A stretch of 64,000 nucleotides of DNA from Escherichia coli (GTDB taxonomy: Bacteria; Pseudomonadota; Gammaproteobacteria; Enterobacterales; Enterobacteriaceae). Shown here one piece after another: positions 62,078-63,272 of this stretch. Within the stretch, counting starts at the first letter, position 1. Every line of letters starts with the position of its first letter. A model generated the notes under the pieces. The model was not told where the DNA came from, did no database searches, and saw only the letters and a program-made list of their open reading frames with translations. The stretch is taken from NCBI RefSeq assembly GCF_036507355.1, contig NZ_AP027877.1; one strand, 5' to 3'. The position numbers and the translations under genes were made by a program.

Positions 62078-63272
62078 AGGAAGGTGCGAACAAGTTCCTG
62101 ATATGAGATCATCATATTCATCCGGAGCGCATCCCAGAGGGACATCATGAGCCATCAACTCACCTTCGCCGATAGTGAATTCAGCACTAAGCGCCGTCAG
62201 ACCCGAAAAGAGATTTTCCTCTCCCGCATGGAGCAGATTCTGCCATGGCAGAATATGACCGCTGTCATCGAGCCGTTTTATCCCAAGGCGGGCAATGGCC
62301 GACGGCCCTATCCGCTGGAGACCATGCTGCGTATTCACTGCATGCAGCATTGGTACAACCTGAGCGACGGTGCCATGGAAGATGCCCTGTACGAAATCGC
62401 CTCCATGCGCCTGTTTGCCCGATTATCCCTGGATAGCGCCCTGCCGGATCGCACCACCATCATGAATTTCCGCCACCTGCTCGAGCAGCATCAACTGGCC
62501 CGTCAATTGTTCAAGACCATCAATCGCTGGCTGGCCGAAGCAGGCGTCATGATGACCCAAGGCACTTTGGTGGATGCCACCATCATTGAGGCACCCAGCT
62601 CTACCAAGAACAAAGAGCAGCAACGCGATCCGGAGATGCATCAGACCAAGAAAGGCAATCAGTGGCACTTTGGATGAAGGCCCACATTGGTGTCGATGCC
62701 AAGAGTGGCCTGACCCACAGCCTGGTCACCACCGCGGCCAACGAGCATGACCTCAATCAGCTGGGTAATCTGCTTCATGGAGAGGAGCAATTTGTCTCAG
62801 CCGATGCCGGCTACCAAGGAGCGCCACAGCGCGAGGAGCTGGCCGAGGTGGATGTGGACTGGCTGATCGCCGAGCGTCCCGGCAAGGTAAAAACCTTGAA
62901 GCAGCATCCGCGCAAGAACAAAACGGCCATCAACATCGAATACATGAAAGCCAGCATCCGTGCCAGGGTGGAGCACCCGTTTCGCATCATCAAGCGGCAG
63001 TTCGGCTTCGTGAAAGCCAGATACAAGGGGCTGCTGAAAAACGATAACCAACTGGCGATGTTATTCACCCTAGCCAACCTGTTTCGGGTGGACCAAATGA
63101 TACGTCAGTGGGAGAGATCTCACTAAAAACTGGGGATAACGCCTTAAATGGCGAAGAAACGGTCTAAATAGGCTGATTCGATGTGTTTGCGGGAAAAAAA
63201 TCGGCCCAGATCCGCGAAATTTTAATCAGCGAGTCAGCTTGGGAAGAAATGACCTGCTTATTCGCACCTTCC
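62078..63272 (+). mobile_element. IS5 (1195 bp) with inactivated transposase
   Basis: Terminal inverted repeats GGAAGGTGCGAACAAG / CTTATTCGCACCTTCC; flanking tetranucleotides TTAA (left) and CTAA (right). Confidence 0.9.
62147..63126 (+). pseudogene. insH: IS5 transposase InsH, disrupted by a 1-bp deletion frameshift near 62673
   Basis: Track shows two overlapping ORFs (62147-62677, 62662-63126); sequence reads ...cagtggcactttggATGaagg... where intact IS5 has ...tttggCatgaagg... (..NQWHFGMKAHIG..). Confidence 0.8.

Follow-up and report, generated by a model that had tools for sequence, protein, structure and literature searches.

The 64,000-nucleotide stretch of Escherichia coli DNA analysed here, called the window below, holds a single IS5-type copy, and the transposase gene of this copy is interrupted by the loss of one C. 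This raises three questions: Does the broken gene still serve a purpose, do ribosomes read across the break, and is the break real? The answer preferred here is that the locus carries a young, non-autonomous and decaying copy of ISKpn26, which sits in a likewise decaying island and is inherited vertically. To this reading we assign a probability of about 0.88. That the broken copy is not inert, be it that its 176-aa ORF acts as a trans-dominant inhibitor or that a low-level -1 slip regenerates the wild-type transposase, appears improbable. This exact allele is already present in RefSeq. The copy is an ordinary case of a defective IS; such pseudogenised copies are very common, and the biological weight of this one is small.

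Identity of the element and its insertion site

The closest matches of the element in E. coli genomes and plasmids bear the PGAP name 'IS5-like element ISKpn26 family transposase'. Over the full length, its nucleotide identity to an intact ISKpn26-type copy named by PGAP amounts to 99.83%, whereas the identity to IS5 of K-12 is 91.97% (93 substitutions). According to the ISfinder rule, isoforms share roughly ≥95% identity at the nucleotide level. Judged by these identities, the window element belongs to the IS5 group as its ISKpn26 isoform and is not IS5 in the strict sense. An earlier note on this DNA had named the copy IS5, which is right for the family and wrong for the element.

Both terminal inverted repeats are intact (Table 1). 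They correspond without mismatch to the terminal repeat of the IS5 group (about 16 bp, GGAAGGTGCGAA(C/T)AAG), and the window contains two exact 16-bp matches versus 0.06 expected by chance. The left end had been placed at 62078 in the earlier note. Since this base is part of the flanking TTAA, the true left end is one position further to the right.

With ISKpn26 (e.g. WP_000019444.1), the window copy shares the 16-bp terminal repeats, the YTAR insertion site and, after restoration of the C, the 326-aa transposase. It differs from ISKpn26 by the C lost in codon 176, one synonymous SNP and an imperfect TTAA/CTAA duplication. The K-12 IS5 (insH, WP_000019403.1) has the same family, group, architecture and length of 1195 bp. 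K-12 InsH and the restored window protein are identical in 321 of 326 residues, and a stretch of 172 bp surrounding the deletion site shows no difference between both elements.

Table 1. Coordinates of the insertion sequence, its ends, its ORFs and its mutations in the window
Feature	Position	Strand	Basis or remark
Left target-site duplication copy, TTAA	62075..62078		empty-site comparison
ISKpn26-type IS5-family insertion sequence	62079..63272	+	1194 bp (1195 bp with the missing C)
Left terminal inverted repeat, GGAAGGTGCGAACAAG, intact, same as in intact copies	62079..62094	+	exact 16-bp match
ORF1, N-terminal transposase fragment, 176 aa, ends ..NQWHFG*	62147..62677	+	ORF list; TGA 62675-62677
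Site of 1-bp deletion; gives ATGA stop/start overlap at 62674-62677	62673..62674	+	alignment
ORF2, C-terminal transposase fragment, -1 frame, MKAHIGVD..	62674 or 62662..63126	+	150 aa from ATG 62674, 154 aa from GTG 62662
Synonymous substitution G to A (CTG to CTA, Leu), private to the window	63072..63072	+	alignment
Right terminal inverted repeat, intact; minus strand reads GGAAGGTGCGAATAAG	63257..63272	-	exact 16-bp match
Right target-site duplication copy, CTAA; one base off the left copy	63273..63276		flank comparison

In at least 37 E. coli genomes, the site is empty and reads ...GTTAG TTAA ATGAGC..., where TTAA occurs once; hence, this was a simple insertion. TTAA and CTAA at the two flanks of the element both fit YTAR yet differ from each other. 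Among 16 other IS5/ISKpn26 insertions examined, 11 have perfect 4-bp duplications, one of them at TTAA. An element with an extra C at its right end and a 3-bp duplication was considered and rejected as a general rule, because another insertion at TTAA (L030) displays a perfect TTAA/TTAA pair. A random T-to-C exchange within the duplication is a priori unlikely, since the 1194-bp body is free of shared substitutions. The mismatch could be due to a point mutation, to conversion from a copy flanked by CTAA-ATGA, or to a base carried over from the flank of the donor. Conversion is possible because the right flank of a copy on a plasmid (L031), CTAAATGAat, resembles the CTAAATGAgc of the window. 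In the literature searched, no statement on the target-site duplication of ISKpn26 was found. The L031 copy itself, which resides on plasmid NZ_CP100988.1 of E. coli ET210, measures 1194 bp through an A7-to-A6 change in its non-coding right part, in the run equivalent to window 63194; its ORF is intact.

The insertion is located in a 121-bp intergenic region between two divergent genes. It is upstream of both: 32 nt separate it from the start of a gene for a hypothetical 126-aa protein (61666..62046, minus strand), and 88 nt from a Ner-like HTH gene (63365-63635, plus strand, TTG at 63365). In every IS-bearing genome, the Ner-like gene carries an A7-to-A8 expansion at 63387-63394 that causes a frameshift at about codon 9. 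In the empty-site genomes AR_0128 and ET665, it is intact (A7). A scan of the region for promoters and terminators yielded nothing above shuffled sequences.

According to the annotation of ET881 (L026 and L003), the surroundings form a genomic island downstream of ychF that spans about 46100-64000 and thus reaches the window end. It comprises an integrase, frameshifted istA/istB of IS21/IS100kyp, a broken transposase, IS1 and a P-loop NTPase of about 1300 aa. In addition, AlpA, a second integrase, a truncated cbtA with yeeU, DUF2787 and RadC are encoded there. The island is decaying, with several lesions of which the broken IS is one. If the deletion and the private SNP are left aside, the window copy equals a 'master' sequence that occurs unchanged at six other sites. 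It follows that insertion and deletion are both recent and that the copy is young. Elsewhere in the window, at 14788-14991, two tandem tRNA-Tyr(GTA) genes were noted, which we take to be the ordinary tyrT/tyrV pair.

The split transposase gene and the mobility of the copy

For comparison, the intact copy of E. coli 98203 (L004) was aligned with the window, as were three further genomes. Compared to the intact copy, exactly one base, a C, is absent between G62673 and A62674: The window reads TTTGG-ATGAAGG instead of TTTGGCATGAAGG, and the sequence of the deletion allele within 62660-62690 is TTTGGATGAAGG. The lost C was part of codon 176 (GGC) of the transposase gene. Alignment and ORF list agree with the claim of the earlier note that a missing C splits this gene into two ORFs. 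In sibling assemblies, gene callers predict ORF2 as a product of either 150 or 154 aa. When the C is put back, an ORF of 326 aa results that matches WP_000019444.1 exactly. No start codon lies further upstream in the restored frame, and the length of 338 aa given before has to be corrected. At 63072, the position of the synonymous substitution, a G is present in every other copy examined, including those in all other deletion-bearing genomes.

The restored protein attains 367 bits against NCBIfam NF033581 (cut-off 140) and contains the Pfam domains DUF772 (residues 51-124) and DDE_Tnp_1 (residues 138-312). By motif, D143, D220 and E276 are the probable catalytic residues, to which K283 may be added. 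A PDB sequence search with E-values up to 1 returned no solved structure related by sequence. ORF1 is complete and unmutated; it comprises the whole DUF772 and the putative catalytic D143. ORF2 matches positions 36-200 of the DDE_Tnp_1 profile and carries the putative D220, E276 and K283. This means, residue 176, at which the protein breaks off, belongs to the DDE domain and has D143 on one side and D220/E276 on the other.

An autonomous element has an intact, translatable transposase gene; here, a stop follows codon 176. Because the transposase is split between D143 and D220/E276, the copy is expected to lack autonomous mobility and would be a defective, non-autonomous member of the family. 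Both ends are intact and each sibling genome harbours 1-2 further IS5-type copies (2-3 places; median 2), so that an intact copy could in principle mobilise the window copy in trans. The earlier note had called the copy probably immobile. For autonomous mobility, this is supported by the split DDE domain and by the failure to find daughter copies; as strict proof of immobility, it falls short, since the ends are intact.

To follow the allele through other genomes, an 80-bp probe across the deletion was used, which matched 12,739 IS5-type places in 3309 E. coli records. The full probe was matched perfectly in only three of the 3309 records, those of ET729, ET826 and ET881, with one place listed per record; in all other records, the C is present at the place listed. 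Among at least 5000 plasmid records, the same probe detected the deletion allele in none. The C is present in all 12 other ISKpn26-type copies that were aligned; these come from different sites and are all single-frame. Neither in the E. coli records and plasmids nor by exact-protein look-ups was a daughter copy with the deletion found at a second locus. Confinement of the allele to one locus is what a non-autonomous copy without progeny predicts. One candidate for a second split copy, an ISKpn26 copy at a different locus (L019, 2405-3599, GCA_958334685.1), was rejected: It retains the C and was instead inactivated by an independent nonsense mutation, TGG to TGA (G to A, W172*), 10 nt upstream of where the window lacks its C. 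This copy is flanked by CTTA and TTAG, which do not form a perfect 4-bp duplication.

The following course of events would account for the locus. In one E. coli lineage, an active ISKpn26 probably inserted into a TTAA of the island downstream of ychF. The loss of one C from the GGC codon of its single transposase gene would have followed the insertion or, with lower probability, preceded it. Translation would then stop at the TGA that ends ORF1, after 176 residues, and DUF772 together with the first catalytic Asp would no longer be joined to the other two residues of the DDE triad, the second Asp and Glu. A copy of this kind could not make its own transposase and would remain as a non-autonomous, decaying relic that is inherited vertically and leaves no daughter copies.

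Could the 176-aa fragment have been co-opted instead? With its promoter, its start codon and DUF772 preserved, it might bind the ends of ISKpn26/IS5 or the full-length transposase and, as a trans-dominant inhibitor, restrain transposition in the lineage. Regulation by truncated transposases is well established for other IS families and elements, e.g. for IS1 InsA, IS911 OrfA and the Tn5 inhibitor protein. The unmutated state of ORF1 with its whole DUF772 would fit such a role, and so would the persistence of the allele across a repeatedly sampled lineage. However, this persistence is predicted by neutral hitch-hiking, and the island around the copy is decaying. No evidence of selection was obtained, the copy being too young for tests (0 shared substitutions). 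Furthermore, the ISKpn26 copy that was independently killed at W172 shows no sign of spread, and the number of IS5-type copies in the siblings (2-3 places) is near the median of 2. An inhibitory role of the fragment is therefore regarded as quite unlikely, and a decaying relic is the preferred reading.

The annotation as a programmed frameshift

In three genomes, the RefSeq/PGAP annotation joins both ORFs to one CDS with the remark 'programmed frameshift' and the accession WP_224465515.1. The annotated spans are 6098-7077 in L001 and 3098-4077 in L002 and L003, equivalent to window 62147-63126. A -1 recoding event, whether programmed or fortuitous, would have to occur at UUU GGA UGA. There, re-reading of the A would give ..F-G-M-K.., so that a -1 slip on GGA would restore exactly the wild-type protein of 326 aa and a low level of function would be maintained. 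The 0-frame stop right after the slip site could additionally pause ribosomes. Within the IS5 family, the IS427 group uses a conserved frameshift motif (PMC3281130). Programmed frameshifting in the family is described for this group, not for the IS5 group.

Several findings speak against such an event. In-frame slippery heptamers (X XXY YYZ or A AAG-type) are absent from ORF1, including 62590-62677, the 88-nt segment that is open in both frames. A homopolymer run occurs just once in the element, at 63194, and lies outside the ORFs. The RNA downstream of the break (62678-62760) has an MFE of -23.3 kcal/mol versus a shuffle mean of -22.6 (z = -0.22) and hence folds no better than shuffled sequences. 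Moreover, a slipped tRNA-Gly would be expected to re-pair from GGA to UGG with a mismatch in the first position. A two-ORF arrangement is not conserved among relatives, as the 12 aligned copies illustrate: It is a rare derived allele at one locus, whereas thousands of IS5/ISKpn26 copies are single-frame. Daughter copies were not found.

Insertion sequences with programmed -1 frameshifting (IS1, IS3 family, IS427 group) likewise have two ORFs that overlap, of which the second is read in the -1 frame, and likewise only their fusion product contains the complete DDE triad (PMC3281130). Unlike them, the window copy possesses no conserved motif, slippery heptamer or stimulatory structure, and its two-ORF state is derived and rare. 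Since heptamer, unusual downstream structure and two-ORF conservation are all missing, the label 'programmed frameshift' appears to be an unsupported annotation artefact. If the -1 slip did take place, which we consider very improbable, the RefSeq label would be accidentally correct. For a relic as preferred here, the label and the full-length accession WP_224465515.1 raise the apparent number of functional transposases and could lead surveys of recoding astray.

Inheritance of the deletion within one lineage

Three complete E. coli genomes, ET729, ET826 and ET881, share the deletion with the window, and its chromosomal site and flanks agree as well. In addition, deletion and locus recur in over 20 other assemblies that stem from unrelated projects. 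Among them are the NCBI assemblies GCA_052959575.1, GCA_054662655.1, GCA_052959675.1 and GCA_022556785.1 and the Logan assemblies SRR14699625, SRR19996185 and ERR1622681. The sibling assemblies were found by exact-protein look-ups of both fragments, and the locus was defined by its flanks CbtA/CbeA, DUF2787 and RadC. Loci with the deletion comprise L007 (plus 8 similar places), L008, L009, L017 (plus 12), L018 (plus 4), L020, L021 (plus 1) and L022 (4 samples). In every one of these loci whose sequence was fetched, the deletion was confirmed. The C was lost from the context TTTGG[C]ATG, which is not a homopolymer and does not match a Dam/Dcm motif. As the same deletion is found at the same locus in independent assemblies and in a context of this kind, the lesion is a real mutation, inherited within one lineage.

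A sequencing or assembly error, with the C present in the real genome and the transposase intact, might be argued from the frequency of single-base indels as assembly artefacts, from the homopolymer (A8) indel in the neighbouring gene and from the origin of the three matching complete genomes in one study, but it is hardly credible given the unrelated projects and pipelines (NCBI drafts, Logan SRR/ERR runs), the sequence context and the expectation that a systematic error would recur at other copies of the same local sequence, when a perfect match to the deletion allele is limited to 3 of 3309 records. The caveat of the earlier note that the lesion might be a sequencing error could be set aside on the strength of the identical deletion at an identical locus in the three complete genomes and more than 20 assemblies. 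Together with the fixed insertion site and its TTAA/CTAA junctions, the deletion is a marker by which one clonal lineage of E. coli can be cleanly recognised.

Seven further loci returned by the look-ups (L010-L016) were rejected as deletion alleles: They are intact GGC copies on contigs that simply end at codon 176. The look-up of the 176-aa product thus returns partial gene calls that mimic a truncated protein, and look-ups of gene fragments should be read with this caution.
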